DNA of 64,000 nucleotides from Calditrichia bacterium (GTDB taxonomy: Bacteria; Calditrichota; Calditrichia; RBG-13-44-9; J075): assembly GCA_965227145.1 (NCBI GenBank), contig OZ245730.1, positions 3,086,187 through 3,150,186 on the forward strand, read 5' to 3'. The notes beneath the pieces are model-generated. The model made no database searches, was not told where the DNA came from, and saw only the letters and a program-made list of their open reading frames with translations. Positions within the stretch are counted from its first letter, which is position 1. The number at the start of each line of letters is the position of its first letter. This document shows positions 5,522 to 50,374 of this stretch, in pieces. A program made the translations under genes and the position numbers.

Positions 5522-6717
5522 TGAAGAATAAACGCAACATTTTGATCGCTGTAATTTTGGGTATTTTGCTGCTCACGTATCTGGAAACACGGGCGCCAAA
5601 AGCGATCAACAAAACACCCAGCTTTTCGCGATACGATAAAATTCCGTTCGGGAGTTTTGTTGTGCACGAATTTCTTACTGATTTTTTCCCCTCGGGCGAT
5701 ATTTTCGAAAACAATCTGCCGTTGCTGCACACACTCGCGGACCTATCAGAAGACGATACGCCAAATTTTCTGTTTATCGATCTCAAATTGGAATTCGACC
5801 GTTTTGAAACTGAAGCAATGATGGATTTTACCAAACGCGGCGGCAATATTTTTCTCGCAGCGGAACGCTTTCGCGGAAAACTTGCCGATACGTTGAACAT
5901 TTCTACCAGCTTTTTCCCGATGGACATCTCCGATTCGTTGCAATTGCAATTTACCAGCCCGTTTTTGCAGGCAGATTCCGGCTATCGTTTCCGGCACGAT
6001 AACGCCGGGATTTACTTCACCGGATTCGATTCCAGCCGGACGATTATTTTGGCGACAAATTCTCAACAAAAAGTAACCCTGCTGCGCATTCCGAACGGCG
6101 ACGGGCAGTTTATTTTTAGCTCAACGCCATTTATTTTTACCAATTATAATATGTTGCTGGCAGAAAATTCCCGGTTTATCGCCACTGCGCTGTCATTTTT
6201 GAACGATACCGATGTGTATTGGGACGAATATTACAAAGAACGCCGCCGGATGTTTCGAACACCGATTCGTTTTATTCTCAGCCAGCCGGCGTTGAAAAGC
6301 GCATATTTTATTATTTTGTTGGGTGTTTTGCTGTTTATCATTTTTCAAGGTCGCCGGAAACAGCGCATCATTCCGGTGATTAACCCGTTGCAAAACACCA
6401 CTTTGGAATTTGTGAATATTGTCGGCAGGTTGTATTTTAACCAGCGTGACCACAAAAAAATGGCGCAGAAAAAAATCAATCATTTTCTGGAATTTTTGCG
6501 GGAAAATTACCGGGTGAACACCGCCGAAATAACACCGGAATTGCACGAAACGCTCGCCCGGAAAACCACTCGCCCACTGGCGGAAATTGAGAATTTGTTT
6601 AATTTTTTCGCCGCAATCGGCGATTCCAGACAAATCAGCGTGCAGGAATTGTTGAAACTCAACCGGATGATCGAATCCTGGTATCCGATAACGGAATCGA
6701 TCCAACGCACAGAATAA
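5521..6717 (+). CDS. DUF4350-like protein (N-terminal signal/anchor)
   Basis: 398-aa ORF directly upstream of MoxR ATPase; start overlaps previous stop. Family assigned by neighbourhood and size. Confidence 0.45.
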   Translation: MKNKRNILIAVILGILLLTYLETRAPKAINKTPSFSRYDKIPFGSFVVHEFLTDFFPSGDIFENNLPLLHTLADLSEDDTPNFLFIDLKLEFDRFETEAMMDFTKRGGNIFLAAERFRGKLADTLNISTSFFPMDISDSLQLQFTSPFLQADSGYRFRHDNAGIYFTGFDSSRTIILATNSQQKVTLLRIPNGDGQFIFSSTPFIFTNYNMLLAENSRFIATALSFLNDTDVYWDEYYKERRRMFRTPIRFILSQPALKSAYFIILLGVLLFIIFQGRRKQRIIPVINPLQNTTLEFVNIVGRLYFNQRDHKKMAQKKINHFLEFLRENYRVNTAEITPELHETLARKTTRPLAEIENLFNFFAAIGDSRQISVQELLKLNRMIESWYPITESIQRTE

Positions 6718-18608: not shown

Positions 18609-19808
18609 GAGGTTAATCCTGTTTCAGTAAAGATTGTTGAATTTAGATTACAGACACTATTTTCGGCAGTTAAACTGCGGACTTTAATGATTGAAAATAT
18701 TTGTATTTTCGCGCCGCTTATTAAACTTTTTTTGCAACAGAGGCGCAAGGGCTCACAGAGAAAGGTTCATGAAGCCCGTGTTAATTATACTGCAATTGGT
18801 CATTACCATTATTTACATCAATATTAAACCAGATTCCTGCTCCGAAGGAGCGCCTTTGGCGCGGATGCAGGAATCTCCTGCTCAAAAAGTTATTTAGTGC
18901 AATCTCTCAGGTCTTCCGTGATGCTGCGGCTAAAATGCAAAACATCAGTTGTTAAAAAACAAGCCGACAGTATAACACATTAACCTTATATTGCGCAATT
19001 TCTTTTTAAATGCTAATGTTACCGGTCATTTGTGCTGACAGGATAACAGGATTTACCGGATCGTAAGTGCAGATACAAATTTAATTGGTTCTCTGACAAT
19101 TTTTGTGGAATAAGTTCTGTTACTGCGCCAGCCTGAGCCCTTCGGTAAGCTCAGGATAAACTGCGTCGAAGGTCGTCATTCGATAAAAAACAGAGGCTTT
19201 CCCGCAAAGCGGGACTCAGCATGACAGAATATGCATGTTTTAGCTGACTTCCACACTATTTGTCAAAGAACGATTAAATTAATATTTTCAATGTAAGGCT
19301 GAGGGAATCGAAGGACAATTCATAATGATAGCGGCTTCGACTTCGCTCAGCCTGACAAGATTTACATTTTAATTAGCAAATTATGGTAGTGTCACTATTT
19401 AATTGATATTTCAACATACAGATGCTTCGTCTCCCGGCTTTCCGGGAAAGAATCTCGTCTTTATGGTGTATCAAATCACTCAATATCTACCACTACCCAA
19501 ATTATTTCTGTCAAGGCACTTATGATGTTTATCAAATTGAGTCTTGTCATTTCCGAATCAACCAAAAACCGTGATATTTTGATGATACAATCAACAATTT
19601 ATTTTCTTGATCATCATGCATATCCTGTCAAACAAACCACTTCCATGTTTTGATTTGCGACTCAAAATACATCATTATATAGGTGCATTTGTGACTGGCT
19701 TAACAGATCGGCAAAATTCATTATATATTCCCATTTTTGTTGATATTCTTCCGTAAATAAAAATCCCCGCCATGAATATGACGGGGCTGGAAAGAACATC
19801 CCCCCTGC

Positions 19809-20005
19809 GCTGCCATTAAGTTAAGGATCAAAGTGGGCAGTTTTGTCACCCTGAGCTAAGTGTCACCCTGAGCACAGTGTCACCCTGAGCGCAGTCGAAG
19901 GGTCGATGGGTCGATGGGTCGATGGGTCGATGGGTAATTTTGCCGTGCATATATCATGGTTCGACTTCGCTCACCATGACAGGTTGTGCTTAACTTAATG
20001 GCAGC
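19809..20005. repeat. 17-bp perfect inverted repeat pair (GCTGCCATTAAGTTAAG / CTTAACTTAATGGCAGC) bracketing a 163-bp repeat-filled segment
   Basis: Arms at 19809..19825 and 19989..20005, read directly. Confidence 0.8.
19845..19936. repeat. Tandem repeat tract: 3 x 16-bp GTCACCCTGAGCnnnn units then (GGGTCGATG)x4
   Basis: Direct reading; reverse-complement copy with 8 units at 22195..22366. Confidence 0.85.
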
Positions 20006-20012
20006 ATTTCAA

Positions 20013-20066
20013 AGGAGGGGATGTCTGATTTCCCCCTTCGAAGGGGGATTAAGGGGGATGTTATCC
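20013..20066. repeat. Solo copy of the palindromic element family (core CCCCCTTCGAAGGGGG)
   Basis: GGGGATGTCTGATTTCCCCCTTCGAAGGGGGATTAAGGGGGATG; same core as arrays at 50.7 and 51.9-52.35 kb. Confidence 0.8.
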
Positions 20067-20107
20067 TGCGGAACGCATATACGCGTTCTCTGCAAATGTT
20101 ATGTATC

Positions 20108-21037
20108 TTACGGCTGCTGGGCCAGATACCATTGATAGGTTTGGGTAATGCCATCCCGTAAAGAGATACCGGCTTTCCACCCCAAACCATTCAGTTTGGA
20201 GACATCCAGCAGTTTGCGGGGCGTGCCGTCCGGTTTGGATGTGTCAAACGTTAGTTCACCGCTAAAACCAACGATATCCTTAATCAGCAGCGCCAGGTCT
20301 TTTATTGCGATATCCTCACCCACCCCGATATTGACAATCTCGCTATCTGCATAGTGCTGCATCAGATACACACAGGCATCCGCCAGATCATCCGCATGCA
20401 GGAATTCCCGTTTGGGTGAACCAGTCCCCCAGATTTCCACGGACGGTTTTCCGGCAAGTTTGGCTTCATGAAACTTGCGGATCAGCGCCGGCAGGACGTG
20501 GGAACTTTGCAGATCGAAATTATCGTTGGATCCATACAAATTGGTGGGCATCACCGAAATAAATGATGTGCCATACTGGCGATTAAAGGACTGGCAGGTT
20601 TTGATCCCGGCAATCTTGGCGATAGCGTAAGGCTCGTTGGTCGGTTCCAGCTTGCCGTCCAGCAAATGTTCTTCCTTCATCGGTTGCGGGGCGAATTTGG
20701 GATAAATACAGGAGCTACCCAAAAACAGCAGCTTTTTCACCCCGTTCCGGTAGCTGTGATGAATAATATTGGACTGGATCATCAGGTTATCGTAGATAAA
20801 ATCCGCCGGATAATCGTTATTGGCCAAAATGCCGCCCACTTTGGCGGCAGCCAAAAATACGTATTCCGGCTGCTCTTTTTCAAAGAAAGCCGCAACGGCT
20901 GCCTGATTCCGTAGATCAAGTTCTGCGGATCGTTTGAGCACCAGATTGTTAAATCCGTTTGATGCCAACCGCCGTGCTATGGCGGAGCCAACCAGACCGC
21001 GATGTCCGGCTATGTAGATTTTTGATGTTGTTTTCAT
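20108..21037 (-). CDS. fcl: GDP-L-fucose synthase
   Basis: 309 aa; extended-SDR motifs [11 protein letters not shown], YxxxK (YAIAKIAG), and Fcl-typical NLYGSNDNF. Confidence 0.9.
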
Positions 21038-21040
21038 GTT

Positions 21041-21092
21041 GGGTGTATGGGTTAGTGGGTGAATGGGTTGATGGGTTATGGGTTGATGGGGA
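21041..21092. repeat. Simple repeat tract (GGGTnnATG-like nonamers)
   Basis: GGGTGTATGGGTTAGTGGGTGAATGGGTTGATGGGTTATGGGTTGATGGGG. Confidence 0.8.
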
Positions 21093-21266
21093 AACTGGGG
21101 GAAGTTCAGTCATTCCCGCAGGTTCCCCGATAAATAACTTCGGGGACCTGCTTTAGCGGAAATCCATCGCTATACAGTCAACATATCACCCCGCTGGGGT
21201 TTCTCATAAAAATATGGGATAATTTTCTATAAACATGTAACTGCTCTGCAGTTATTTGCATTGAAG

Positions 21267-21341
21267 CCAAAACCCCGGAGGGGTAACATGTTTATATTCG
21301 GAAAATAAATGAAACTATCCAAAACCCCGGAGGGGTGACAT
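21267..21341. repeat. Direct repeat of CCAAAACCCCGGAGGGGT[A/G]ACAT, two copies ~52 bp apart, upstream of fcl
   Basis: Copies at 21267..21290 and 21319..21341; each contains a CCCC-GGA-GGGG mini-hairpin. Confidence 0.7.
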
Positions 21342-21525
21342 TTTATAATGGTTTTAATAAAAAATTTCCAAAGAACTTATCAGCCCTGCCATTTGATGAG
21401 GGATGTTGAGGACTGCCAGACATCAAACGAATCGGTAAAAGAGAAAGTTTTATAAAACACGTTCAATAGCTCGATAGCTGTATCTGCAGATGCTATTGGA
21501 TGAGCCTGTCGAAGCCGGACTTTTT

Positions 21526-21750
21526 TTACAATTGTTTCAGGAGACTGTCATAATCGGCGTGGGAACATACCCAGAACCAAGGGATGTAATCCGTTTTTAT
21601 TACACCAACTGCCCGGTAATCCCTGCTTATTCGCACGGAATATACCGGCAGACTTGAATGAATTCTCTTAAATCGGAGTCCGGGATACCAGGGATCTTTA
21701 CGGAATACAGCATAAGCTACTTTTGCCTGTTTTTTTATTTCTGCAGGCAA
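21526..21750 (-). CDS. RelE/ParE-superfamily toxin-like protein (type II TA toxin, putative)
   Basis: 74 aa; VYSVRISRDYRAVGV...IPWFWVCSHADYD resembles the RelE/ParE beta-sheet core; sits just downstream of a small acidic ORF. Confidence 0.5.
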   Translation of the reverse strand: MPAEIKKQAKVAYAVFRKDPWYPGLRFKRIHSSLPVYSVRISRDYRAVGVIKTDYIPWFWVCSHADYDSLLKQL

Positions 21751-21792
21751 ATCATAGTAATTTTTTCAAAAATCGGGATGTTGCCTTTGATC

Positions 21793-22014
21793 TCACAATT
21801 TGTCAATGTCCAGATGGGTCGCATTACCCTGTTCATCTTCTTCCAACGCTTCCAAAGCCAGCTTAGCCAATGCGTCTTCAGATTCAGCAAACTTTTTATC
21901 CCACAGTTTTTCCGAATCAATTTCATCAAGTATCCAACGCGCTAATGCATTTTGTTCGATTTCCGGAAGCCGGGACATTTTTTTAAACGCTTTTTCCAAT
22001 AAACGGGTCATCAT
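21793..22014 (-). CDS. Putative antitoxin partner of the RelE/ParE-like toxin
   Basis: 73 aa, acidic C-terminal half, directly upstream of and co-oriented with the toxin ORF (43-nt gap). Confidence 0.4.
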   Translation of the reverse strand: MMTRLLEKAFKKMSRLPEIEQNALARWILDEIDSEKLWDKKFAESEDALAKLALEALEEDEQGNATHLDIDKL

Positions 22015-22107
22015 TTAATACCTGGCAGTTGTTATATGATCATAAATTAAATATAGTCGCAAACTGCATGTGTAGTCAATGGTCAATTTTATTGGCGGGT
22101 TGTGATC

Positions 22108-22166
22108 AGCTTTTAGCTTTTGGCTTTTAGCTTTTGGCTTTTGGCTTTTGGCTTTTGGCTTTTGGC
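22108..22166. repeat. (GGCTTT/AGCTTT)n hexamer tract
   Basis: AGCTTTTAGCTTTTGGCTTTTAGCTTTTGGCTTTTGGCTTTTGGCTTTTGGC. Confidence 0.85.
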
Positions 22167-22194
22167 AAGAAAACCCAGGGTTTACCTTCCGCCG

Positions 22195-22366
22195 CTTTGC
22201 CGCTTCGACCCTTCGACCCTTCGACTGCGCTCAGGGTGACACTGCGCTCAGGGTGACACTTGCTCAGGGTGACACTGCGCTCAGGGTGACACTTGCTCAG
22301 GGTGACACTTGCTCAGGGTGACAATCGCTCAGGGTGACACTGCGCTCAGGGTGACACTGCGCTCAG
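22195..22366. repeat. Tandem repeat tract: (CCTTCGAC)x3 then 8 x 16-bp GCTCAGGGTGACAnnn units; inverted copy of 19845..19936
   Basis: Direct reading; reverse complement gives GTCACCCTGAGC units as in the 19.85-kb tract. Confidence 0.85.
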
Positions 22367-22470
22367 GACAAGCCTTTTACTTTTTCCCTTCGGCTTCGCT
22401 CAGGACGAGCCTTTTTACTTTTTACTTTTTCCCTTCGGCTTCGCTCAGGACGAGCCTTTTTACTTATTTC
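22357..22470. repeat. ~48-bp direct repeat x2 (CGCTCAGGACRAGCC-TTTTTACT-TTTTCCCTTCGGCTT) just 3' of gmd
   Basis: Direct reading. Confidence 0.7.
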
Positions 22471-23565
22471 ACTGCTTCATCTGTTTTTCAATCTTGGCCA
22501 ACCGGTAATCTGCGACAATCATAATATCGACCAGTTCCCTGAAGGTGGTTTGGGGTTGCCAGCCGAGATGTTTTTTGGCTTTAGCCGGATCACCGATCAG
22601 CAAATCCACCTCGGTGGGACGGTAATAACGCGGGTCAATGGCCACAACCGTTTGCCCGACGCGAAAGGCCGGAGAGCGTTCCAGTCCCGGCAATTTGGGA
22701 TCATCGATATTGGCAATCACCGCATATTCTTCGCTACCGTTGCCCTGCCACTGCAAGGTTACCCCGAAGCCATCAAACGAGGCTTCGATAAATTCCCGAA
22801 CAGAATTGGTCTGTCCGGTTGCCAGCACAAAATCATCCGGTTCGCTTTGCTGGAGCATGCGCCACATACCTTCCACATATTCCGGTGCGTAGCCCCAATC
22901 GCGTTTGGCATCGAGATTTCCCATAAACAATTGTCCTGCTCGCCGATAGCCATCCGGGTAATCGCCCGGGTGATCTTGCGGGTCACAAAAGTTTCCCCGC
23001 GCCGGGGCGATTCGTGGTTAAACAAAATCCCGTTGCAGGCAAAGAGGTTATAGGCTTCGCGATAGTTCACGGTGATCCAGAAGGCATACATTTTGGCAAC
23101 GCCGTAAGGGCTGCGGGGATAAAACGGGGTGCTTTCCGTCTGCGGCACTTCCTGCACTTTGCCGTAAAGCTCCGATGTAGAAGCCTGGTAAAACCGCGCT
23201 TTGATACCGGTTTCTTTAATCGCATCGAGAAAACGCAGCGTGCCGACAGCATCCACTTCCGCAGTATATTCCGGCACCTGGAAAGAAACACCGACGTGAC
23301 TCTGGGCGGCCAGATTATAAATTTCATCCGGCTGCACCTTTTCAAGAATGCGGTTGAGGTTGGAGGAATCGGTCAAGTCCCCGTAATGCAGCACCATTTT
23401 GCGGGGCTGTTCGTGGGGATCCTGGTAAATATGTTCAATACGCTGGGTGTTAAAATTGCTGGCGCGACGGACAATGCCGTGCACCTGATAGCCTTTTTCA
23501 ATCAGCAGTTCAGTTAAATAACTGCCATCCTGACCGGTTATGCCGGTAATGAGTGCCTTTTTCAT
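22469..23565 (-). pseudogene. gmd: GDP-mannose 4,6-dehydratase, reading frame broken by an apparent 1-nt deletion (or sequencing error)
   Basis: Track ORFs 22759..23592 and 22469..22930 are the N- and C-terminal parts of one Gmd ([31 protein letters not shown] / [12 protein letters not shown]). Frames switch at 22925..22936, where GACAATTG would read through as GACAAATTG. Likely start is the second Met (MKKALITG) at 23565. Confidence 0.8.
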
Positions 23566-23718
23566 TGATGCCTCATGATTTTCTTTTGCCATGAATATTC
23601 ACGAATGGTCACGAATATCTGTAATTTTTGTCTTGAAATCAATGCTTGTATGAATTGACAGATGTCAATCATTGTTTGGGTAAATGGGTGTATGGGTAAA
23701 TGAGTGAATGGGTATAAG

Positions 23719-23940
23719 ACGCACCTCGTTACAGGCTCCTGCCTGGAATGTCTTTATCCGGTGAGGGATGATTTGGATACAATAATGGAACAGCTACGAT
23801 GTTCGACGCACCTCGTTACAGGCTCCTGCCTGGAATGTCTTTATCCGGTTATTTGGATACAATAACGGAACATCTACGATGTTCGACGCACCTCGTTACA
23901 GGCTCCTGCCTGGAATGTCTTTATCCGGTTAGGGAAGCAA
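23719..23940. repeat. ~86-bp tandem direct repeat, about 2.6 copies, upstream of gmd
   Basis: Unit GACGCACCTCGTTACAGGCTCCTGCCTGGAATGTCTTTATCCGGT...TTTGGATACAATAATGGAACAGCTACGATGTTC; partial fourth copy at 24086..24120. Confidence 0.85.
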
Positions 23941-24063: not shown

Positions 24064-24393
24064 GTTGGTCGGTTGGGTGAAATGATTTGGCTACAATAAT
24101 GGAACATCTACGATGTAATCTTGTGTATGGTCAATTGTCAATTGTCGATGGTCGATGGTCAATTCCGAGTTCCCCGCCGCGAAGCGGTTCCTTCGGAAAA
24201 GGAGCATCTTCGGCGTCGAGTTTCGAGTTTCCGATTCCATCTGGAGCAAAACTACCGCAAAAATAAACCAATAACCTATATAATGAAAAAACCCTGCTGC
24301 CGGGTGTACTCCCGGTCGATCAGGGTTATGTTGTTGCTAGTGAAACGTCTTAAACAATAGGGAAATGGAACAACCCAGTATTAATGGATAACT

Positions 24394-27318: not shown

Positions 27319-28550
27319 ATCGTTTTATTCACTCGAATTGCATCACTCATTATTTGTAGCATTTCTTTACGCCGTAAATTCCATGAAAAATTATCCAAGA
27401 TCCTTACTTTACATGCTTCTGCAAATTGCAATCTTAAATTAGTGTTATGGTATAGTTCTTCCATGCTATTTTTGAGATATTCTATTACCTCTTTTGTATT
27501 TGTTGGCGGTATTTTATATCCTGTGTTTTCGTCAACTTGTAAGGCTGGCCCACCAATATCCAAACATATAACTGGCCTTCCCGCGGCCATTGCCTCGGCA
27601 CAAACCCATCCACCCGAGTCGTGAAAACTTGGATGCACTAATGCATCGCTATCTTTTAAAACACCAAAAACCTCTTCCCGGGAAAGGTTACCCATGAATC
27701 TCGTTTGTTCCTGAATACCAAGTTGGCTAGCCAGATCCTTTAAGTTTTGAAATTCGGGACCTTCTCCAACTATCCAATATTCCGAGTGAATATCACCTGA
27801 TTTTAAGAACTCCGCAAAGGCCTTTAAACCTAAGTGGTAACCTTTCCAATGCAACAATCTGCCAATACTAACAAAGATCAGATTGGGATTTTTGTTGATT
27901 TGGAATTGGTTTAATTTTTCGATGTCTTTTAAAGGCAATGCAACATTTGACATTATTTGTATATTTTTAACACCTGCTTTATGCAATCGTTCTTTGGTCT
28001 GTTCGGATGTTGCTAGAGCTATTGTAGCCCGTTTTACGGTTAATTTCCAAAGTATATCGAATTGAACAAGAGATCTTACGATATCTCTTTTATGCTCAAA
28101 AATTTTTCCATTTAGATCTAATGACTTGTATAAGCTTTTTGGCGCTGATTCACCACCACCTACCGGTCCCCAGATAAATGGAATGGGTAACAAACATAGT
28201 AAGCTTGGTAACCAATATGAGCCAAATGTTGCATGTTGAATTACATCGAAATTAATTTTATTATTAATTTTTTTTATCTTGAAATAAATAGCTATCTGCC
28301 ATAAATAATAATAAACTCTTGCACCACGAGAACCTTTTTTCCAAAATCTTAGGTAGTATGGTAAATCATAGTATATCCAATGTGTATTTTGCGGTAAAGA
28401 TTGGTTCTTAGTAACAGGTATGCTATTATTTTCCCTGGTTATAACCCATATCTCATTCTCAATTGATAATTGTTCGACCCAGTTCCAACCGATACCTGCT
28501 TCAGAGCCTTTACCGGGTTCACATGCGTAAGCGGATACTAATATTTTCAA
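27315..28550 (-). CDS. Glycosyltransferase family 4 (GT-B)
   Basis: 411 aa; SIGRLLHWKG, HPSFHDSGGWVCAEAMAAGRPVICLDIGG. Confidence 0.8.
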   Translation of the reverse strand: MKILVSAYACEPGKGSEAGIGWNWVEQLSIENEIWVITRENNSIPVTKNQSLPQNTHWIYYDLPYYLRFWKKGSRGARVYYYLWQIAIYFKIKKINNKINFDVIQHATFGSYWLPSLLCLLPIPFIWGPVGGGESAPKSLYKSLDLNGKIFEHKRDIVRSLVQFDILWKLTVKRATIALATSEQTKERLHKAGVKNIQIMSNVALPLKDIEKLNQFQINKNPNLIFVSIGRLLHWKGYHLGLKAFAEFLKSGDIHSEYWIVGEGPEFQNLKDLASQLGIQEQTRFMGNLSREEVFGVLKDSDALVHPSFHDSGGWVCAEAMAAGRPVICLDIGGPALQVDENTGYKIPPTNTKEVIEYLKNSMEELYHNTNLRLQFAEACKVRILDNFSWNLRRKEMLQIMSDAIRVNKTI

Positions 28551-28555
28551 TACTT

Positions 28556-30418
28556 TTAATTGTTAACTTTTTCCAGACCCGTGTTTTTTAAAATTGTATG
28601 CTCAATTATAAATAAATTCAACAGATAGCTAAAGGTTTTCATGTTTTCACTAAAAATGGATCTATCATTTTCATAAATACATATATGATATATTAAATAT
28701 AAACCATAAACACCATGGATAATTCTATCAATGATTTCTAAATCTATATTCAGTTTTAATAGATAAGTTTCATAAATTTTATACCAACCTATCTTTTCTG
28801 TTAATTCTTTGTGTACTTGATATTTGGAAGTTTTCCGGATCAGTATCATAACTTGGGTATAATAGCGTATAACATCAAAACCAGCAGGTGCAGAATCAAT
28901 TGCATATTCAAAGTCAAAAACACCAACTTTCGGTTTTGTATTATACATATTCCATGGTGTAAAATCACCATGAGAAAAGTGAAAAGGTAATTGTATAGAT
29001 AAAACTTTTTTAATGATTATCTCTAATGAATCTTCACAAAGGTGTTTTAAATACGGTGTTTTAATATGGTTAACCATTTTTTGTAATTCTAAGAAAAAAT
29101 CAGATTCCACCAATACCATTGCACTGTAATTTATTTTTGAAAAATCTTTTACGACATTTAAGAATTCTTCTTTTTCTAATATCATTGATTTATGCGATAT
29201 TTTTTTAGAATCAAGGGCACTTGTAACAAGACAATATTTAACTTTCCATCTCCCTTCATATAAAACTTCCGGTATATCAATCGCATGAAACTTATGAGAA
29301 TTTAAATTTTTTAAAATATTTGCTTCAGTTTTTAGACCTTCAATGGCGGCTTCTTTATTGGCAATTTTGGCAAATGCTATTATACTTCCATTTAAATCCA
29401 TTAAACAAAATACTATCTTACGTTTAGGACCAGGTGCGCCTAAAGATATTGAAAAATTTATTACATTAAGTTCTGGAAATAAACTATTAATAAAACGCAG
29501 GAAAGAGCTTAGCTGTGTCTGGTCAATATGTATTTTATTAAAAATATATTTTGCAAAACCACACTTAAATGATAATTGAATAAAATTTTTTAATAATCGT
29601 GCTTTTTTTGAGGCTGGAGAGTAAAGAGATAAACTATTAGTTATAGATCGTCTAAACTTATAGTTAACAATAAATCCGCGACCATCATTAAATTTTATTA
29701 ATACAAGTTCAGGATATGACTGCCTTTCATGATATGCATTGAAGAAACTTTGTACCCATAATTCTGGATTATAATCTGTTTTTGAATCGATATAATTATT
29801 AAACTTGCTAAGAATTAGTGTCTTTATTTCATTTGCAATTGCATAGGGAGCTCTATTTATTCGGATTAGATATTCAATTTCTCCTAACCTATGTAATTTA
29901 ATCCAACTTAATTGATGTTGGGTAAGAATTTTAACAGGTAATTCAGGTTTACGTCTATAAATATATTCTGGTTCATCATATAATAGTATGCTAATATCTG
30001 CCTTTTGAGCAACCTTTGGATATAGTTTAGTTATAAATATCTTTTTTAAACCAAATCTTTCTGGATTAACCAAAATATCTAAATAAGACCTATCATAAAA
30101 AACAAGATCAGATGAATTACAAATATTACTTTTAGAAAAAAACCGATCAATAGCATAGTCTATTAAATAATATATCTGTCTCGCAAATTGAAATTTGCCA
30201 TGCTCCTGTCTTGGTATTATTATAGAATCATTAATTTTGATATTTTGGGGTTGACGATGAGCTATTTTATGAAGAGGTGGTAAATACCCCGGACGCCAAA
30301 ACCTTCTTTCTAAATTAACATTGTCAAGTTGATTTATAAGAAAATCAAGAGTTGTAGATTTTCCAACACCATCAGGTCCATGAAGAGATATAGTAATTCT
30401 ATTAGATTTAGATTTCAA
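28556..30418 (-). CDS. Two-domain protein: N-terminal P-loop (nucleoside/nucleotide-kinase-like) plus C-terminal APH/choline-kinase-like phosphotransferase
   Basis: 620 aa; Walker A HGPDGVGKST near N-terminus; C-terminal HGDFTPWN (Brenner-type catalytic loop) and DFEYA (metal-binding D-x-E). Confidence 0.55.
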   Translation of the reverse strand: MKSKSNRITISLHGPDGVGKSTTLDFLINQLDNVNLERRFWRPGYLPPLHKIAHRQPQNIKINDSIIIPRQEHGKFQFARQIYYLIDYAIDRFFSKSNICNSSDLVFYDRSYLDILVNPERFGLKKIFITKLYPKVAQKADISILLYDEPEYIYRRKPELPVKILTQHQLSWIKLHRLGEIEYLIRINRAPYAIANEIKTLILSKFNNYIDSKTDYNPELWVQSFFNAYHERQSYPELVLIKFNDGRGFIVNYKFRRSITNSLSLYSPASKKARLLKNFIQLSFKCGFAKYIFNKIHIDQTQLSSFLRFINSLFPELNVINFSISLGAPGPKRKIVFCLMDLNGSIIAFAKIANKEAAIEGLKTEANILKNLNSHKFHAIDIPEVLYEGRWKVKYCLVTSALDSKKISHKSMILEKEEFLNVVKDFSKINYSAMVLVESDFFLELQKMVNHIKTPYLKHLCEDSLEIIIKKVLSIQLPFHFSHGDFTPWNMYNTKPKVGVFDFEYAIDSAPAGFDVIRYYTQVMILIRKTSKYQVHKELTEKIGWYKIYETYLLKLNIDLEIIDRIIHGVYGLYLIYHICIYENDRSIFSENMKTFSYLLNLFIIEHTILKNTGLEKVNN

Positions 30419-31662
30419 TTCTCTTTTGAATTTACCATTTTAAAAATATTAACAATTTCATCATTTAACTGTGATTCAAGTATTGTTAGTTCAGGATTGT
30501 TTATGGAGCTTATAACTTCGCTATTAAATTGTAAATTGCAACAATAACTATTTTTAATGCATTCATTAATTTTAACTTGCTCTTCTTGCAGTATAATATT
30601 AATTACTGCATCAGGGTTAGGTAAGAAAATTAAAAAAACATTCATAAGCTTTAATATTAATAAAGCTATCAAACTATTTTTTTTTTCTTGCAAAAAATTC
30701 GCTTGATAATAAATGACAAGCTGTTGTCGGCTTTTCATTAATTTTGTTTTAAAAAGCACCTCAACCAGATCCTTTATTATATTATCTAATATATTAAAGA
30801 AACTCATCCCCTTTGACATATAACGATAAAGGTTTCTTTGTACACAGTAATCCTTATTTATTTTATGTACTGGTAAGTGAAAAAACATTGGCAAGTCGAT
30901 ATTATTAATCTGTTTTACTAAATGAATTAAAAAAGCATTATTATTACAATTTAGGAGTATCAATGGCCCACACGGTGAAGTAAATACTAATGCCTTTTTT
31001 TTGATCCACCCAACTAAATTTTTAATAGCATTTCCAGGATGAGAAAAAATATAGTGTAATATTAAATCTCTTTTTAAATTTTTTAATCCTATTAATTTTT
31101 CTAATTGCGTTATTTCAAGATAGTAAAAAAATTGAACTACCGTTTTTGAATTAAGCTTTTTAGATAATATTTGTTTTCCAGCTTGAATAAACTCAAATAT
31201 CTTTTCTTCATTTTGAATATTATATAGTAACTTCCTCTCATTATTGGCTAAAACAGGTAACAATACTTTTCTAACAAATGGAAGCCAAAGTTTACTTTCG
31301 ATTTGTTTATCTTCTGAATTAAAAAAATCATTAAAATCAATAAAACCCCATGAAATATTTTTTAAGCTATGAAATTCGAGATATTGCCATTTCCCATTGA
31401 TTTTTTTTATTCCTATTATTCTTTTACCCCAAATGGGAGGAGGATGAATCGCATAAAATTCATTTTTGTGGAATTCTTTTTTAACCAGTTCTAATGCGAA
31501 TTCAACATCATTAAATATTACAACATCTATATCCCTACCAACCATCCTTGGAAATTTTTCTAATCCACTTACGACAGTAAAGAAAATATTGTAATTGTTA
31601 AATTGAGTTATAATAGATTGTATTATTGCAACTTTAAGTTTGTTGACATCAAGCAACATCAA
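30415..31662 (-). CDS. Hypothetical protein; N-terminal segment weakly nucleotidyltransferase/LicD-like (GRDIDVVIF)
   Basis: 415 aa, co-directional, start overlaps upstream stop; only a short D-I-D-V motif supports a family. Confidence 0.4.
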   Translation of the reverse strand: MMLLDVNKLKVAIIQSIITQFNNYNIFFTVVSGLEKFPRMVGRDIDVVIFNDVEFALELVKKEFHKNEFYAIHPPPIWGKRIIGIKKINGKWQYLEFHSLKNISWGFIDFNDFFNSEDKQIESKLWLPFVRKVLLPVLANNERKLLYNIQNEEKIFEFIQAGKQILSKKLNSKTVVQFFYYLEITQLEKLIGLKNLKRDLILHYIFSHPGNAIKNLVGWIKKKALVFTSPCGPLILLNCNNNAFLIHLVKQINNIDLPMFFHLPVHKINKDYCVQRNLYRYMSKGMSFFNILDNIIKDLVEVLFKTKLMKSRQQLVIYYQANFLQEKKNSLIALLILKLMNVFLIFLPNPDAVINIILQEEQVKINECIKNSYCCNLQFNSEVISSINNPELTILESQLNDEIVNIFKMVNSKEN

Positions 31663-32334
31663 TTAATCCGATTTAAGTTTTGCTACACAAATCATTGTAT
31701 CACCAAATCTAGGCATGGTTCGAAAGAACCACTTTAACGCACTATTGGCAATTTTATTGGAATTCGTTTCAAATATTTCATTACTAGTATACCAATTTGA
31801 AACTGTAAGATCAAACCGATTGAATAATGTTTTAATAAGGGAAAATGTAAACCCCAAAGTGTGGTCCGGATGAATTCTTTGATTTGATTTTAAATTATGA
31901 AGAAACAACTTTAGACTCAACAAATTAGGTGTAGTAATAATCAATTTAGTATTTTTATTCATATATTTTTTTACTGATTGTAAAAACAGGCCTGGATTAT
32001 ATAGATGTTCGATTAATTCACCTGCAATTATTACATCAAAATTAACTTTATTTGAATCGAAAGTAAGGTTTTCAACATTATCTACATAAAGATTGGCAAC
32101 ATTATATTTTTCTTTTAAATAATCTAAAACTTCTTGGCTTAAATCCACACCATAAAGTAAGTTAGATTGTTCCATTAACCTCAGATGCAAATACCTACCT
32201 ATTATCTCATTATCTTTATAATGAATGGCATCTGCACACCCTAAATGTAGTACATTTTTATCTTTACAACTATCTACTAAAAACTGGTTTCTATCCTCAA
32301 TAAATTTGATTGAAGGAAATTGGTTTTTTCCCAT
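31663..32334 (-). CDS. Class I SAM-dependent methyltransferase
   Basis: 223 aa; motif I VLHLGCADA, acidic motif YGVDLS, motif III-like DVIIAGELIEHL. Confidence 0.8.
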   Translation of the reverse strand: MGKNQFPSIKFIEDRNQFLVDSCKDKNVLHLGCADAIHYKDNEIIGRYLHLRLMEQSNLLYGVDLSQEVLDYLKEKYNVANLYVDNVENLTFDSNKVNFDVIIAGELIEHLYNPGLFLQSVKKYMNKNTKLIITTPNLLSLKLFLHNLKSNQRIHPDHTLGFTFSLIKTLFNRFDLTVSNWYTSNEIFETNSNKIANSALKWFFRTMPRFGDTMICVAKLKSD

Positions 32335-32339
32335 TTCTC

Positions 32340-33491
32340 TTAATTGCCTCTAATTTCTTGGTTTTTATTAATAAATTTTTTATAACTCTTATTCATATCT
32401 ATAGCAATATTTTTCCATTGAAATGAATCTAAAATTATTTTATAATTTTCTAGTCCCATTTTTTTTAATTTTAGTTTAGACTCAGATTCTGCATTAATAA
32501 GGGCCTTAGCAATTTCTTGAAAATCAAAATTTACAATCCATCCTGAATTTCCATTTTTTAACATGCCTATTGGATTAGCCTGTTTTGTCAATAAACAAGG
32601 TAAGCTCATAGCCATTGCCTCGAGCACTGACAAAGACAAGCCTTCCCATCTTGAAGTATGAATAAAAATATCTGAATGATTTAAATAATTATATTTTTTG
32701 GGACCAAATAAAGGACCTACGATTAATACTTTATCTTTTATATCATAATTTGAGATCATTTCTTTTAGGTGTGGAGTATTATCTTTATGGTCAGGGCCAA
32801 CTAATAACAATACCAAGTTTTTAATGTTATTATTACTAAAAGCTTTTAATAAAACATCTAACCCCTTTTGGACTGGATCTAAGCGTCCTACAAACAAAAC
32901 AATTCTTTTAGAACTCAAGAAAGGATAATCTTTCAAAATGTCGTTATTTATATACTCTTTAGGTATAACATCTAAATTTATCCCGTTTGGTATTTCAACG
33001 ATATGATTATTTACACCATAATTTCTAATACTTTCAGTATCTCCTACAGAATGAACAAAAAGAGCTCCATTGTAAAGTTTTAATTCTATAATATATTTAT
33101 ATATTAACTTGAGTATTTTTTTTCTAAGTAATATTGATTTGTCTAAACCACCGTGAGCTGTAATAACATAAGGTATATTCAGTTCATTTAACCATCTGGA
33201 AATAATGTAATTATGTGGGTTATTTACCGAGTGTAAATGTACGACATCAGGATTACACTCAATTATTTTTTTTTTTATTTCAATTGGAAGTAAAATTGCG
33301 GCTTTATGTGGTTTAAATTTATATATCTGAACATTTGGTATACTAATAATTTCTTTATTTGTAAGGGAAAATAAGATTACACAGTTACTTGAATTTTTTG
33401 CCAATTCAAGAGTCATATTGTATACCATCTTTTCAATGCCATTTGCTGAATCTGGATTACACCGTCCAAGTAAATAGTGGAGAATTATCAT
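32340..33491 (-). CDS. Glycosyltransferase family 4 (GT-B)
   Basis: 383 aa; FVGRLDPVQKGLDVL, HTSRWEGLSLSVLEAMAMSLPCLLT. Confidence 0.8.
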   Translation of the reverse strand: MIILHYLLGRCNPDSANGIEKMVYNMTLELAKNSSNCVILFSLTNKEIISIPNVQIYKFKPHKAAILLPIEIKKKIIECNPDVVHLHSVNNPHNYIISRWLNELNIPYVITAHGGLDKSILLRKKILKLIYKYIIELKLYNGALFVHSVGDTESIRNYGVNNHIVEIPNGINLDVIPKEYINNDILKDYPFLSSKRIVLFVGRLDPVQKGLDVLLKAFSNNNIKNLVLLLVGPDHKDNTPHLKEMISNYDIKDKVLIVGPLFGPKKYNYLNHSDIFIHTSRWEGLSLSVLEAMAMSLPCLLTKQANPIGMLKNGNSGWIVNFDFQEIAKALINAESESKLKLKKMGLENYKIILDSFQWKNIAIDMNKSYKKFINKNQEIRGN

Positions 33492-33512
33492 ATACCTGTC
33501 AATGTTTAAGTT

Positions 33513-34301
33513 TCACGAATAAACAATTTTTATATATTTTCTATATATTAATAAGGTTGAACATAATATTCTATAGATTTTAAGACCAAACTCATTATTC
33601 ATTAACTTTATACTTGAGTATCTATTAAATACTTTAAAACCTTCTTTATATCTTATTTCACGAACATTTGGCACATCTAAAGACTTGTTTGAATTATGCC
33701 ATCTGAAAATGGCAAAGAAATCATTTACATATTTTAATTTATATCCAGAATATAAAATATGAGCAAAAAACTCTTTATCCATTGTTAGTTTAAAATTCTT
33801 ATCAATTAGTATGCCTGAATCAATAATTTCTTTTCTAAAGAAGAAAGTTGTAGAAGGGATATAGCAATGATAAAGTGAAAGCCATTTAATAGGTATGTGC
33901 GAATATACTTTTTGTACCTTCTTATTTGATTGAAAAAGCAAATAAAAATTTGAATAAAATGCATCAACATTCGGGTTATCAATAAAATACTTGCTAATTT
34001 TATGAAATGTTTTAGTGCAGTATTGATCGTCAGCGTTAAGCCATCCGATTATTTCACCTGTTGCTAAATGGAATCCTTTATTTAAAGCATCACTTTGACC
34101 TTCATCTTTTTCTGAAATCCATTTCAAATGCGGATACTCTTTAACTATTGAAAGTGTATCATCTGTTGATTCTCCATCAACAATTATATGTTCAAAATTG
34201 TTATAATTTTGATCTATTACACTATTTATGCAATCTTTTAAATATTTTGCACTATTGTATGATGGAGTAATAATAGATATTTTAGGATATTTTTCTGACA
34301 T
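33513..34301 (-). CDS. Glycosyltransferase family 2
   Basis: 262 aa; ISIITPSYNSAKYL, IVDGESTDDT, GWLNADD (DxD-type). Confidence 0.85.
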   Translation of the reverse strand: MSEKYPKISIITPSYNSAKYLKDCINSVIDQNYNNFEHIIVDGESTDDTLSIVKEYPHLKWISEKDEGQSDALNKGFHLATGEIIGWLNADDQYCTKTFHKISKYFIDNPNVDAFYSNFYLLFQSNKKVQKVYSHIPIKWLSLYHCYIPSTTFFFRKEIIDSGILIDKNFKLTMDKEFFAHILYSGYKLKYVNDFFAIFRWHNSNKSLDVPNVREIRYKEGFKVFNRYSSIKLMNNEFGLKIYRILCSTLLIYRKYIKIVYS

Positions 34302-35544
34302 TTGATATACGTTTATTTGTGGAAAAATTAAGTATCAACGAAAATGAAATAAAAATCCAGCTTACAACATCGGCCCCATAACCAATCATATACATAATCA
34401 AGGCTATAGTAGATAGAAAACTTAGTCTATAAACAAATTTATCATTTGGGTCAATATTTTTCATTCTAATTTTAATGTACGATTTATATAAGAAACTAGA
34501 TACAAATAAAATTACTAAAGAAATCCCCAAATATCCCAAATAGTATAGTGTTTGAATAAAACCGTTATGAGCTCCTGCCATCGCCTGATCACCAATTAGT
34601 TTTGCATGCACAATGAATCGAGCTCCTAACCCATTTCCCATAAATGTTGCATTATCAATTACAGCATTCCAAATCAACATTCTCCACGAGCCTGTTGCGT
34701 CAGCGTCAAAATCGGTAAATGCAGTTAATCTCTGCTGTATAAATGCAATATCAATCTGTATAAAAAAACCCACAATGAATCCAACAACTGCCACGAGGAA
34801 CATATATTTATAATTTTGAACCCAAAGAAAAATTATGGGCACTGTTGCAAAAAGAATTGCCCAAACAGTGCGATGACTTGTATATGGAATCATAATCACA
34901 AAAATAGGTAACAGAAACAGCGGCAATCTATAACTTTTATCAATAAATTGGTAGTAAAGTAATCCAGATAAGAAGCCCAAAGTAATAGTTTCATACGTCA
35001 ACGCACCAAATTGGCGATTTGCCACACTTAGCGAATAATTATTTGTCAGGACTAAATTAAGAGGTGCTAGAATTATTAATGGCATAAGGTAAGTACTTAG
35101 ACCCTTAATTAATTCCAATACTTCTCTTTTTCTGACATTAGTTGAAATATATATCATGATAATAATATAATAAAAAACTGAACGAAATTCAGCAATACTC
35201 GCATATCCAAATTTAACTCCACCCATAAAAACAGATACAAATACAAAACCAAAAAATAGTCTCACGATATCGTTTTTAAAAAACAATGGAGAGTTTCGGG
35301 TTTTACTTATTTTTTGATGAATAATAAAAACCACCATCAATAACAAAGCAATGTCTGTTGGTTGTGTTCGAATAGGCGTAAGAGTTAATGATGTTATTCC
35401 ATTTTCCCATGAGTTTCTTTCAATAAAAAACATAAATAGAGTGAATATTAAAATAAACTCATTTCTGGTCTTTGCCTTATACAAGAAGTAGATAGAATAT
35501 AAAATAATAATATATAATAGTGCTGGATGACCTGATATATACAT
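34282..35544 (-). CDS. Polytopic membrane protein, O-antigen polymerase/ligase (Wzy-like) candidate
   Basis: 420 aa with about 10 hydrophobic helices and a larger loop near the C-terminal third; position within the GT cluster. Confidence 0.5.
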   Translation of the reverse strand: MYISGHPALLYIIILYSIYFLYKAKTRNEFILIFTLFMFFIERNSWENGITSLTLTPIRTQPTDIALLLMVVFIIHQKISKTRNSPLFFKNDIVRLFFGFVFVSVFMGGVKFGYASIAEFRSVFYYIIIMIYISTNVRKREVLELIKGLSTYLMPLIILAPLNLVLTNNYSLSVANRQFGALTYETITLGFLSGLLYYQFIDKSYRLPLFLLPIFVIMIPYTSHRTVWAILFATVPIIFLWVQNYKYMFLVAVVGFIVGFFIQIDIAFIQQRLTAFTDFDADATGSWRMLIWNAVIDNATFMGNGLGARFIVHAKLIGDQAMAGAHNGFIQTLYYLGYLGISLVILFVSSFLYKSYIKIRMKNIDPNDKFVYRLSFLSTIALIMYMIGYGADVVSWIFISFSLILNFSTNKRISNVRKIS

Positions 35545-35586
35545 ATTTAATTCTGGGATTTAAAATTAGAAATAAGAGATTTCAAC

Positions 35587-39113: not shown

Positions 39114-39148
39114 TAATATTTATTACTAAATTTTAATTTTTTTGGTAA

Positions 39149-39874
39149 CTAAATAGTCCCTGAATCAACAAATATATTTTGACCGGTTATTGAACTAGCT
39201 TTTTCTGACAGAAGAAACTCAACCGTATTCGCTACAGAATTTAGTGAGGTAGGTGTTTTTAGTGAATTTCTATTATAAATTCTGTTTCTTTGACCATCAT
39301 CCAATTTTTGGCTCATTGAAGTTTCCATGAATCCTGCAACGATACAATTTGATCTTATCCCTTTACTTCCCCATTCCCTAGAAGTATTTTTTGAAAAGGC
39401 CTCCAATGCACCTTTTGTTGAAGCATACATTGCAAGCCCTTTATAACCTGTATGCACACTTATAGAAGAAATGTTCACAATACTACCTTGTATTTGATGA
39501 AGCAACATATTTCTAATAACATATTTGGTGATTAGCATTGGCGTAAAAACATTAACCTGAAACATCTCATGCAAAGGTTTTATATCAATATTTGTTACAA
39601 TGTCATCATAAGCAATTGCTGCATTGTTTACAAAGCCATGCAAAGGAATATCATAATTAATGAAACCCTTTGTTAGTAAGTTTTTACAACCTTGAGTATC
39701 TAATAAATCAAATGACTTGATATAAATTTTACTTTCATAACTATTCATTAATAATTTTAAATCATTAGAAATTGTTCTGCATAAGCCATGTACAGTATAC
39801 CCTTTTTCAAGTAAAACTTGAGCAATTTCCAATCCAAGCCCTTTGGATATACCAGTTAATAAAATATTCTTCAT
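39149..39874 (-). CDS. Short-chain dehydrogenase/reductase (FabG-like)
   Basis: 241 aa; TGISKGLG glycine motif, NNAA, catalytic S...YxxxK (SSISVHTGYKGLAMYASTK). Confidence 0.85.
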   Translation of the reverse strand: MKNILLTGISKGLGLEIAQVLLEKGYTVHGLCRTISNDLKLLMNSYESKIYIKSFDLLDTQGCKNLLTKGFINYDIPLHGFVNNAAIAYDDIVTNIDIKPLHEMFQVNVFTPMLITKYVIRNMLLHQIQGSIVNISSISVHTGYKGLAMYASTKGALEAFSKNTSREWGSKGIRSNCIVAGFMETSMSQKLDDGQRNRIYNRNSLKTPTSLNSVANTVEFLLSEKASSITGQNIFVDSGTI

Positions 39875-41326: not shown

Positions 41327-41327
41327 A

Positions 41328-50200: not shown

Positions 50201-50218
50201 AATGGTTTTCGTTATTTG

Positions 50219-50310: not shown

Positions 50311-50374
50311 GACAATAATCAATTAACAAAATTCATTATTCCATATTCAATAGCCAACGGCGGTTTGCGTAGCT

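Follow-up and report, generated by a model that had tools for sequence, protein, structure and literature searches.

Inverted repeat tracts flanking fcl and a toxin-antitoxin pair are probably separately acquired, locally amplified copies of a hairpin-type intergenic repeat

Results and discussion

The two inverted repeat tracts that flank fcl and a toxin-antitoxin pair in the 64-kb stretch of Calditrichia DNA analysed here (the window) are most probably non-coding, locally amplified and independently acquired copies of a dispersed hairpin-type intergenic repeat, not a switch. The 5' half of the motif through the loop (16-17 nt) and the 3' half (8 nt) would each have been multiplied head to tail, the likeliest cause being replication slippage that may have begun at the hairpin apex. 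With at least two units present, more slippage alters the copy number, which explains the differing unit counts in related strains. The two tracts, named A and B, would have arrived separately: tract A belongs to a doublet of inverted motifs, of which it forms one arm, and this doublet is the cargo of a cassette (197 bp, ending in 17-nt terminal inverted repeats, TIRs) that would have inserted into a hairpin of the fcl 3' region in one lineage only. Consequently, the inverted placement of the tracts around fcl and the toxin-antitoxin pair would be a by-product and no device, and their effect on the genes is likely incidental, for example as a structured 3' untranslated region. In this view the tracts are unremarkable repeat DNA, selfish or neutral and expanded to an unusual degree, and this result removes a tempting but unsupported flip/deletion switch for fucose synthesis.

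Structure of the two tracts

The existence of two inverted tracts, proposed in an initial annotation of this DNA, was confirmed in the raw sequence, by Tandem Repeats Finder and by a repeat finder. In tract A (plus strand), three 17-nt 5'-half units (GTCACCCTGAGC followed by TAAGT, ACAGT and GCAGT; 19845-19895) are followed by 3'-half units with a period of 8, one GTCGAAGG and four GTCGATGG (19894-19935), and the array junction holds a complete core hairpin motif, CTGAGCGCAGTCGAAGG, with 0 mismatches (19885-19901). Tract B (minus strand) contains 3'-half units (CTTCGACC x2.9, or about three copies of GTCGAAGG on the minus strand; 22203-22225), eight 5'-half units of 16-17 nt plus a ninth, decayed unit (GTCCTGAGCGCAGT; 22224-22367), and a complete core motif of its own (22218-22234). 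Each tract consists of a single complete motif, GTCACCCT-GAGCGCAGTCGA-AGGGT, with both halves (5' and 3') separately multiplied in tandem, and head-to-tail periods of 17 and 8 nt are present in both. The copy numbers of 3 and 8 given in the initial annotation hold, but the real period is 16-17 nt and not exactly 16; the 'GGGTCGATG' array lies beside the tract as described, with its unit corrected to 8 nt. The 12-mer GTCACCCTGAGC has 11 exact matches in the 64 kb, every one within the two tracts, and when up to two mismatches are allowed the window contains 15 matches against 1.4 expected, a number that none of 100 shuffles reached. A CRISPR array was ruled out: the 12-nt cores are only 4-5 nt apart with near-identical spacing sequence, compared to the unique spacers of ~25-40 nt of such arrays.

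Tract B had been read as the reverse complement of tract A. The inverted orientation is correct, but the complementarity is not exact: over 80 nt, the arms (19858-19937 and 22182-22261) show 85% complementarity, exact inverted matches between the tracts reach no more than 32 nt, and the adjoining octamers are one base apart (GTCGATGG vs GTCGAAGG). The two tracts have in common an unusual unit (5' half plus loop GCAGT) as well as this 32-nt identity, although they sit in different carriers, which speaks against the preferred reading and suggests copying or gene conversion between tracts A and B.

The intervening segment and its surroundings

The segment between the tracts measures 2.26 kb and contains, as annotated, fcl and the toxin-antitoxin pair, all on the minus strand: fcl (GDP-L-fucose synthase, 20108-21037; Pfam Epimerase, E = 2e-67, with close homologues so named), a ParE-like toxin gene (21526-21750; PF24732, E = 4e-12) and a presumed antitoxin gene of 73 aa (21793-22014), which matches no Pfam family. 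A look-up of the antitoxin returned this locus only; in the data searched, the pair is no multi-copy mobile unit. Outside the segment, gmd (GDP-mannose 4,6-dehydratase, 22469-23592, minus strand) reads as two ORFs in the window owing to a GGG-to-GG difference near 22937. Reading the tracts as a toxin-antitoxin operator array was also ruled out; such arrays occur elsewhere without toxin-antitoxin genes.

Other repeats crowd the same spacers. An octamer array ACCCATnn (coding strand, 21040-21090) abuts the fcl start codon, a heptamer array GCTTTTG x8.3 occupies 22109-22166, and a 45-nt repeat present twice (22375-22465, minus strand) starts just past the gmd stop codon and holds two more copies of the core motif (CTGAGCGAAGCCGAAGG; 22387-22403 and 22432-22448). 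On the other side of tract A, a further motif copy (GTCAGGCTGAGCGAAGTCGAAGCC; 19300-19356, minus strand) lies about 20 nt from a decayed inverted partner, the doublet copy being at 19334-19350. In these Calditrichia, the spacers next to fcl and gmd change fast and accumulate repeats, along with a MITE-like cassette, an insertion sequence (IS) and small toxin-antitoxin-type cassettes.

Comparison with related contigs

The scan of a genome collection for tandem 5' halves returned no Calditrichia genome among its matches, and the species-level comparison therefore rests on four contigs that were reached through Fcl homologues. In one of these (L003, a Calditrichia contig with 97.7% identity, in which gmd is intact with 365 aa), the gmd-side tract has 5 units compared to 8 in the window, the fcl-side tract has 5 compared to 3, and the octamer counts, including that of the ACCCATnn array at the fcl start, are also different. 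The gmd-side tract of the contig L203 (roughly 94% identical) has 2 units. In summary, tract B has 8, 5 and 2 units in the window, L003 and L203, respectively, and lies downstream of gmd in all lineages open to examination, while tract A has 3 and 5 units in the window and L003 and is absent from L001 and L203. Judging by their contig names, L003 and L203 are apparently short-read assemblies in which arrays may have collapsed, so these exact unit counts are somewhat uncertain. Because copy numbers differ among relatives, the suggestion that the tracts are slippage-prone is supported, and because tract A is missing in L001 and L203, the tract pair is not conserved. From 23851 downstream, 13.8 kb of the window was aligned with L003; all indels of at least 6 bp in this alignment are intergenic, and nearly all of them fall in recognisable tandem or hairpin repeats. 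The related short contigs L004, L204 and L001 break off at neighbouring repeats.

An assembly artefact, in the tracts themselves or in their copy numbers, is extremely unlikely. Tandem arrays assemble poorly, short related contigs end near this locus at repeats, and the window carries gmd with a homopolymer frameshift; however, independent assemblies of different samples (L003 and L203) show the same tracts with site and orientation unchanged, and there they differ in internal unit order and point variants, not in length alone.

The initial annotation had proposed that the tracts could mediate inversion or deletion of the segment between them, and a comparison of related strains, which it had called for, shows that, in the contigs compared, the tract lengths vary between relatives but the orientation is constant. 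As a working inverted-repeat pair, the tracts would allow homologous recombination to flip fcl together with the toxin-antitoxin pair as a kind of phase variation. The 80-nt arms with their 85% complementarity and 32-nt exact match are consistent with this reading, as is the location in a surface-polysaccharide cluster, where phase variation is common, and the common unit structure of tracts A and B hints at past sequence exchange. Against this, neither gene order nor orientation differs among the window, L003, L203 and L001, and the four related contigs in which a flank is kept all show one orientation; both tracts are spanned by only two genomes, a sample in which rare inversions could escape notice. 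Two lineages have no tract A, and the scan of roughly 47 window ORFs found no recombinase, invertase or transposase. In addition, RecA-type recombination has a lower limit close to the 32 nt of exact identity present here. Deletion fares no better: inverted repeats can yield inversion, not simple deletion, and although the toxin-antitoxin cassette is an indel of its own, missing from L203 and probably from L001, it is bounded by the heptamer and octamer arrays and not by the tracts. In L203 the GCTTTTG array directly abuts the fcl leader and marks the edge of this indel. Taken together with the cassette described below, these observations make the inversion reading very unlikely. Known invertible switches (fimS, hin and the Bacteroides invertons) are similar in having inverted repeats around a segment, here in a surface-polysaccharide locus; the difference is that no adjacent site-specific recombinase was found here, no second orientation was seen in this small sample, relatives lack one of the arms, and whole genes, not a promoter, lie between the repeats.

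The cassette that carries tract A

Tract A lies in a MITE-like cassette of 197 bp (19809-20005) with perfect 17-nt inverted repeats, GCTGCCATTAAGTTAAG, at its ends (19809-19825 and 19989-20005). Within the cassette, a partner motif on the minus strand (GTCATGGTGAGCGAAGTCGAACCATGA; 19958-19985) forms an inverted doublet with tract A. The nearest inverted partner of tract A is 55 nt away in its own cassette, compared to 2.3 kb for tract B, which argues further against the inversion pair. The corresponding region of the window (19804-20027) is missing in L001, and L203 has an IS in its place. The cassette 17-mer was found with an inverted partner in 48 of the 120 metagenome stretches among the matches listed, and flanking direct repeats of at least 8 nt were present in 16 of 41 distinct metagenome elements, 11 nt being the commonest length. 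At this locus, a decayed copy of the target-site duplication is found in L003 (CTCCTTTGAAA / CCCTTTCGAAA), of which the window lacks 9 bp. At two loci elsewhere (L207 and L239), the doublet is built in the same way but is not amplified.

The carrier of tract A thus combines terminal inverted repeats, a target-site duplication, copies at unrelated sites and presence/absence polymorphism. It resembles MITEs (e.g. Correia/NEMIS and Nezha) in its perfect 17-nt TIRs, its lack of coding capacity, its presence or absence at a site and the direct repeats, most often of 11 bp, that flank its relatives elsewhere. On the other hand, only the terminal repeats of the cassette are conserved, with a hypervariable interior that usually holds another hairpin doublet, and its ends are only partly like those of the ISAs1-like IS at the L203 site (common TTAAGTT). 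An integron attC site was rejected for the 17-nt arms, which contain GTTAAG/CTTAAC: the core-like sites are wrongly ordered, and the element has 11-bp flanking duplications. A literature search with the 17-nt terminal repeat as a literal sequence gave unrelated primer matches only.

An intrinsic-terminator-like hairpin with a T run (19765-19786, minus strand) lies just beyond the cassette, as called by a consensus scan that gave 15 sites against 6.7 expected in the region, and it would put the cassette in the fcl 3' untranslated region. This bears on a role of the tracts in cis on RNA, in which structured 3' untranslated regions would give the gmd and fcl mRNAs greater stability or bring about their termination, like the REP elements of E. 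coli. In a variant of this reading, long-range pairing of the tracts on a transcript that reads through from gmd would enclose the toxin-antitoxin genes and fcl and mark them for processing by RNase III. In favour are the position of the cassette between the fcl stop codon and the terminator-like hairpin, the strong fold of the whole cassette as ssDNA (z -5.2), the start of tract B just past the gmd stop codon and a predicted RNA duplex of tracts A and B of -163 kcal/mol, compared to -56 +/- 6 for shuffles. However, the motif favours neither the sense nor the antisense strand of adjacent genes elsewhere (22 vs 26 and 11 vs 11 in other genomes, on crude gene calls), no Rfam family matches, relatives do without tract A, and promoter-like sites occur at chance frequency (12 vs 10.5 expected). 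A role at the RNA level, in either form, is accordingly considered unlikely.

A putative hairpin motif found in many phyla and in viral contigs

The core CTGAGCGNAGTCGAAGG has 6 window copies at up to three mismatches, compared to 0.17 expected, and all of them lie inside 19334-22448. The motif is clustered within about 3 kb of the 64-kb window, unlike the spread of a classical genome-wide repeat. Outside the window, CCTGAGCGNAGTCGAAGG has at least 120 matches in viral contigs, and the pair just outside CCT/AGG is kept in 121 of 128 distinct viral contexts (CG 66, UA 39, UG 10, GC 5 and AU 1). The covariation of this pair is 0.195, compared to 0.128 +/- 0.010 in shuffled data, with none of 500 shuffles as high. 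The sole variable position of the core is the middle of a C-GNA-G triloop, a type reported to be unusually stable in DNA (PMC3201870). Nearest-neighbour DNA folding of the isolated tracts and of a single motif was no better than that of shuffles (z -1.05 to +1.35), so the hairpin rests on the one covarying pair and the published GNA-loop stability.

Tandem 5' halves (GTCACCCTGAGC N3-5 GTCACCCTGAGC) were found in 78 genome stretches, from Gemmatimonadales, Eremiobacterota, Acidobacteriota, Bacteroidota, Chloroflexota, Cloacimonadota, Zixibacteria and others. The 3' half follows within 16 nt in 60 of 82 arrays, and at least two copies of CGAAGG are present in the following 60 nt in 16 of the 82. 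Inverted doublets are formed not only at 19958-19985 with tract A and, with a decayed partner, at 19334-19350, but also at five other loci (L160, L182, L191, L207 and L239). The same core with half-by-half amplification is encountered in many bacterial phyla and in viral contigs.

Searching Rfam with this locus and seven loci with clear doublets gave no specific family, and the doublets produced sub-threshold matches to generic long hairpins (microRNA precursor). A literal-sequence literature search with the core motif and its variants gave unrelated primer matches only, and the motif does not appear in the REP/RAYT papers examined. Neither Rfam nor the searchable literature yielded a description of the repeat family. 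A truly undescribed family would be a handy natural system for how stable DNA hairpins drive tandem expansion, and a recurrent source of broken metagenome assemblies and spurious small ORFs.

It is possible, though doubtful, that the CTGAGC-GNA-G(T)CGAAGG hairpin is an undescribed family of many phyla and viruses in which one mechanism at an ssDNA apex lies behind three patterns. The conserved cap would then be a hyperstable DNA mini-hairpin. First, the 5' and 3' halves would be amplified separately and meet in the loop; second, the arms of doublets would keep their local stems, the long hairpin being mismatched at exactly those positions; and third, the motif would nest in an element with 17-nt TIRs, itself in the loop of an older hairpin. 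Candidate mechanisms would be polymerase stalling at the apex or a nicking or transposing enzyme, and the tracts at fcl would also exchange sequence through gene conversion.

Comparison with known repeat systems

Similar to REP/BIME elements and the RAYT-mobilised REPIN doublets, the present motif is a short, intergenic, non-coding and putatively hairpin-forming repeat that is found as single copies, inverted doublets and clusters, in many cases shortly downstream of genes, and whose number varies between strains. However, the same core recurs here across many phyla, while REPs are usually lineage-specific, the hairpin halves are amplified in tandem, and no RAYT (Y1 transposase) gene was found among about 47 window ORFs. 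Two large REP super-families are defined by a GTAG or CGTC tag (PMC3733652); the motif GTCACCCTGAGCGNAGTCGAAGGGT has neither.

The tracts are also comparable to bacterial VNTR or contingency loci, with short head-to-tail units whose number varies between close relatives, as slipped-strand mispairing predicts. The difference is that the units are halves of a hairpin motif and that the tracts lie outside any reading frame or recognised promoter spacer, so that no on/off effect can be deduced from them. Heptamer repeats of the TAACTGA type are found in Beggiatoaceae, Cyanobacteria and Bacteroidetes (PMC4679880). Such intergenic arrays, including the cyanobacterial STRR, resemble the 7-8-nt arrays in the same spacers here (GCTTTTG and ACCCATnn) in their variable copy number, but the unit sequences are different, and the 16-17-nt tracts are not of the heptamer type. 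The ACCCATnn array is also present right before the gmd start codon.

Two tracts of tandem putative hairpin halves flank fcl

The two tracts described in the initial annotation are present, by direct inspection of the sequence, by Tandem Repeats Finder and by a repeat finder, as tract A on the fcl side (19845-19935, + strand) and tract B on the gmd side (22203-22367, - strand). Tract A begins with three 17-nt units (19845-19895, + strand), in which GTCACCCTGAGC is followed by TAAGT, ACAGT or GCAGT, and continues with octamers (19894-19935, + strand), one GTCGAAGG and then four GTCGATGG. Tract B, read on the - strand, has eight 16-17-nt units and a decayed one (22224-22367), followed by approximately three GTCGAAGG octamers (22203-22225). 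The annotated unit numbers of three and eight are borne out, apart from this extra decayed unit in tract B; the tandem repeat is real with a period of 16-17 nt, not 16, and the second array exists with its unit corrected to 8 nt, the octamers of the two tracts differing at one base. Tract B is not simply the reverse complement of tract A: the arms are 85% complementary across 80 nt, and exact inverted identity extends over no more than 32 nt. The 12-mer GTCACCCTGAGC has 11 exact matches in the 64-kb window, every one within the tracts; at up to two mismatches there are 15 matches against 1.4 expected, a count reached by 0 of 100 shuffles. As annotated, fcl and a toxin-antitoxin pair lie between the tracts, the three genes being fcl itself (homologues named GDP-L-fucose synthase), a ParE-like toxin gene (PF24732) and a 73-aa partner ORF without a Pfam family.

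Each tract holds one complete GTCACCCTGAGCGCAGTCGAAGGGT where its two arrays meet. At up to three mismatches, the window contains six copies of the core CTGAGCGNAGTCGAAGG (0.17 expected), all of them within 19334-22448, and more decayed relatives lie at approximately 19135-19230. Outside this genome, the core was found as CCTGAGCGNAGTCGAAGG in at least 120 viral-contig matches. Among the matches listed, the pair just outside CCT/AGG is kept in 121 of 128 distinct viral contexts, with 45 double changes, and its covariation score exceeds 500 of 500 shuffles and all slid controls; the next pair outward is kept in just 52%, and pairs still further out in approximately 37-50%, against 36-52% in slid controls; the local stem is therefore a short one. 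Base counts at the single variable position of the core (A 61, G 30, T 27, C 14 among the matches listed) fit C-GNA-G, and we infer that the core forms such a triloop, with tandem G.A mismatches flanking it. As DNA, GNA triloops with a C:G closing pair are reported to be very stable (PMC3201870). Standard nearest-neighbour folding favoured neither the motif nor the tracts. Under the C-GNA-G reading, the 17-nt unit would comprise the 5' side of the stem with the loop, and the 8-nt unit the 3' side, each tract then consisting of tandemly repeated hairpin halves.

Tract lengths vary among relatives without inversion

The window Fcl is 98% identical to proteins of Calditrichia metagenome-assembled genomes, and four related contigs were compared. 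L003 (97.7% nucleotide identity, colinear over 13.8 kb, with the same gene order and orientation) contains the toxin-antitoxin pair, a tract B of five units and 4-5 octamers, and a tract A of five units (three perfect, two decayed) with two GTCGATGG and one GTCGAAGG. L203 (~94%) has a tract B of two units and ~5 octamers, an insertion sequence (IS) at the site of the absent tract A, and no toxin-antitoxin pair. L001 (~94%) ends before tract B, lacks tract A, where an insertion resembles the L203 IS, and probably lacks the pair. L205 (~92%) ends before both tracts and has the pair, with a shorter, different toxin-fcl spacer containing another motif copy. Tract lengths therefore differ among relatives (tract B 8/5/2 units, tract A 3/5), which supports the proposal that they are slippage-prone. 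No inversion of the fcl segment was seen in L003, L203, L001 or L205, and with tract A missing in L203 and L001 the pair is not conserved. The initial observation is thus confirmed together with its slippage part, and the suggested inversion or deletion through the tract pair is not supported. The two tracts have separate histories.

In L203 (1-260) a heptamer array adjoins the fcl leader directly, and so this contig lacks window ~22103-21068, which comprises the toxin-antitoxin cassette together with the spacer downstream of it. Downstream of fcl, the IS takes the place of window 20016-19807, tract A entirely included. Both differences recur in L001 up to the contig end, the heptamer array apparently adjoining the fcl leader (1-80). 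The toxin-antitoxin pair and following spacer (~21068-22103) form a ~1-kb presence/absence polymorphism; the antitoxin is on record at this locus only. From 23851 downstream, indels of at least 6 bp between the window and L003 are all intergenic, and tandem or hairpin repeats can be recognised at nearly every one. L003 also carries at 5888-6381, between a DUF1972 glycosyltransferase gene and gmd, a two-gene cassette (78 aa and an 84-aa DUF4160 protein) missing from the window (~24118-24162), adding to the small mobile cassettes of these spacers.

Tract A is the cargo of a MITE-like cassette

Tract A lies within a 197-bp cassette whose ends are a perfect 17-nt inverted repeat, GCTGCCATTAAGTTAAG (19809-19825, 19989-20005). 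The cassette also carries a sense motif copy (19958-19985) pairing with tract A, and as a whole folds at -43.9 kcal/mol (z -5.2). The 17-mer occurs in at least 120 metagenome stretches, with an inverted partner 26-200 nt away in 48 of the 120 listed. Direct repeats of at least 8 nt, most commonly exactly 11 nt, flank 16 of 41 distinct elements among the matches listed, against ~1.5% of shuffled pairings, which points to transposition that duplicates 11 bp of the target. The element interiors are hypervariable and strongly folding (median z -6.5) and include GTAG-type REP doublets; those of L207, L239 and L267 are doublets of the fcl-locus motif family, and L207 and L239 align arm for arm with the window cassette, without amplification. 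The flanks of the L003 cassette keep a decayed target duplication, of which the window has lost 9 bp. A literature search by sequence gave no match for the 17-nt repeat. This repeat defines a widespread metagenomic MITE-like element, and tract A is the cargo of the window copy.

By eye, the inverted doublets of three elements (window 19958-19985 with 19879-19901, L207 and L239) have local stems that differ between arms, CCCT/AGGG in one and GGT/ACC in the other; consequently the long hairpin is mismatched precisely at the local-stem positions and each arm can fold on itself. One metagenome stretch (L303) holds a near-empty element with 9 nt between the arms. The L203 IS (1272-2529; DDE_Tnp_1 and DDE_Tnp_1_assoc domains), which we take to be ISAs1-like, is located in the loop of a CCCCCTTCAAAGGGGG hairpin at the exact site of the window cassette. 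L001 has an insertion of like length and start there (1088-2366), and a lone IS-end copy, GGCAGGGCTGATAAGTTCT, lies in the window toxin-fcl spacer (21372-21390).

Related arrays in other phyla and possible origin

One genome per species was scanned for two 5' halves in tandem at 3-5-nt spacing, giving 82 arrays in 78 stretches from Gemmatimonadales, Eremiobacterota, Acidobacteriota, Bacteroidota (Niastella, Dyadobacter, Chitinophaga), Chloroflexota, Cloacimonadota, Zixibacteria and others. A 3' half follows within 16 nt in 60 of the 82, and at least two CGAAGG copies lie just downstream in 16. In 16 of the 82 the spacer exactly matches the bases upstream of the first unit, which marks a recent tandem duplication. 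The motif also commonly forms inverted doublets (L160, L182, L191). Since the scanned arrays have 2-3 units and the longest found by eye has six with wider spacers (L136), the eight units of tract B are the largest case seen, in a comparison limited by short-read assemblies. No Rfam family matches the motif, a literature search by sequence found it in no paper, and a crude gene caller revealed no orientation bias relative to neighbouring genes. The feature belongs, in strongly expanded form, to an apparently undescribed cross-phylum REP- or MITE-like hairpin-repeat family; the tracts themselves are of modest interest, and the family may merit a dedicated survey.

The hairpin apex may be where the first duplications arose, polymerase stalling at a very stable cap being one possible cause, and later growth and shrinkage would be due to slippage. 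Tracts A and B, although in different carriers, have in common a unit type, the 5' half with GCAGT as loop, and an exact match of 32 bases, which suggests copying or gene conversion between them. The cassette follows the fcl stop codon and precedes a terminator-like hairpin, and may therefore form a structured 3' untranslated region of the transcript; if co-transcribed, the two tracts are predicted to pair in a strong RNA duplex.

The surrounding locus and its other repeats

The window is a large surface-polysaccharide cluster encoding Wzi, an initiating sugar transferase, many glycosyltransferases, a Wzy-like protein, a flippase-type protein and sugar-modifying enzymes; no recombinase, invertase, transposase or Y1/HUH enzyme was found among ~47 window ORFs scanned. 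Within it, a low-GC island (28000-44000; 26-33% GC versus 40-50% in the flanks) with genes for glycosyltransferases, the Wzy-like protein and sugar-modifying enzymes probably represents a serotype-type block subject to horizontal exchange. The gmd gene (22469-23592, - strand) is broken into two ORFs, with GG at ~22937 versus GGG in L003, where it is intact (365 aa); the split reflects a homopolymer sequencing error or, alternatively, a genuine pseudogene, which would interrupt GDP-fucose synthesis upstream of fcl.

The coding fraction is ~83%, and the spacers flanking fcl and gmd are unusually long (1499, 488, 454 and 801 bp). Octamer arrays (ACCCATnn, coding strand) at 21040-21090 and 23669-23713 reach the fcl and gmd start codons, where no Shine-Dalgarno sequence is obvious, and vary in copy number in L003, L001 and L203; in closeness to start codons they recall the TAACTGA arrays that immediately precede start codons in Beggiatoaceae (PMC4679880). 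Many intergenic heptamer arrays (GCTTTTG, GTCAATT, TTTGTCT, AATGGTC, CAATTAG; at 22109-22166, 24130-24164, 50215-50352, 51704-51750 and elsewhere) are similar in kind to cyanobacterial STRR repeats, and in the GCTTTTG array the window and L003 are two units different in length. An 80-nt tandem repeat containing a CAGGCTCCTGCCTG hairpin (23771-23931, two copies, with a partial third at 23684-23763) has one copy fewer in L003. A 113-nt repeat (3.7 copies, 51926-52347; also 50374-50472 and 60187-60287) contains CCCCCTTCGAAGGGGG-type and GCCCCTCTTTGAAGAGGGGT-type hairpins, a hairpin type into which the cassette and the IS near fcl have also inserted, and 42-nt and 25-nt tandem repeats occupy further window spacers.
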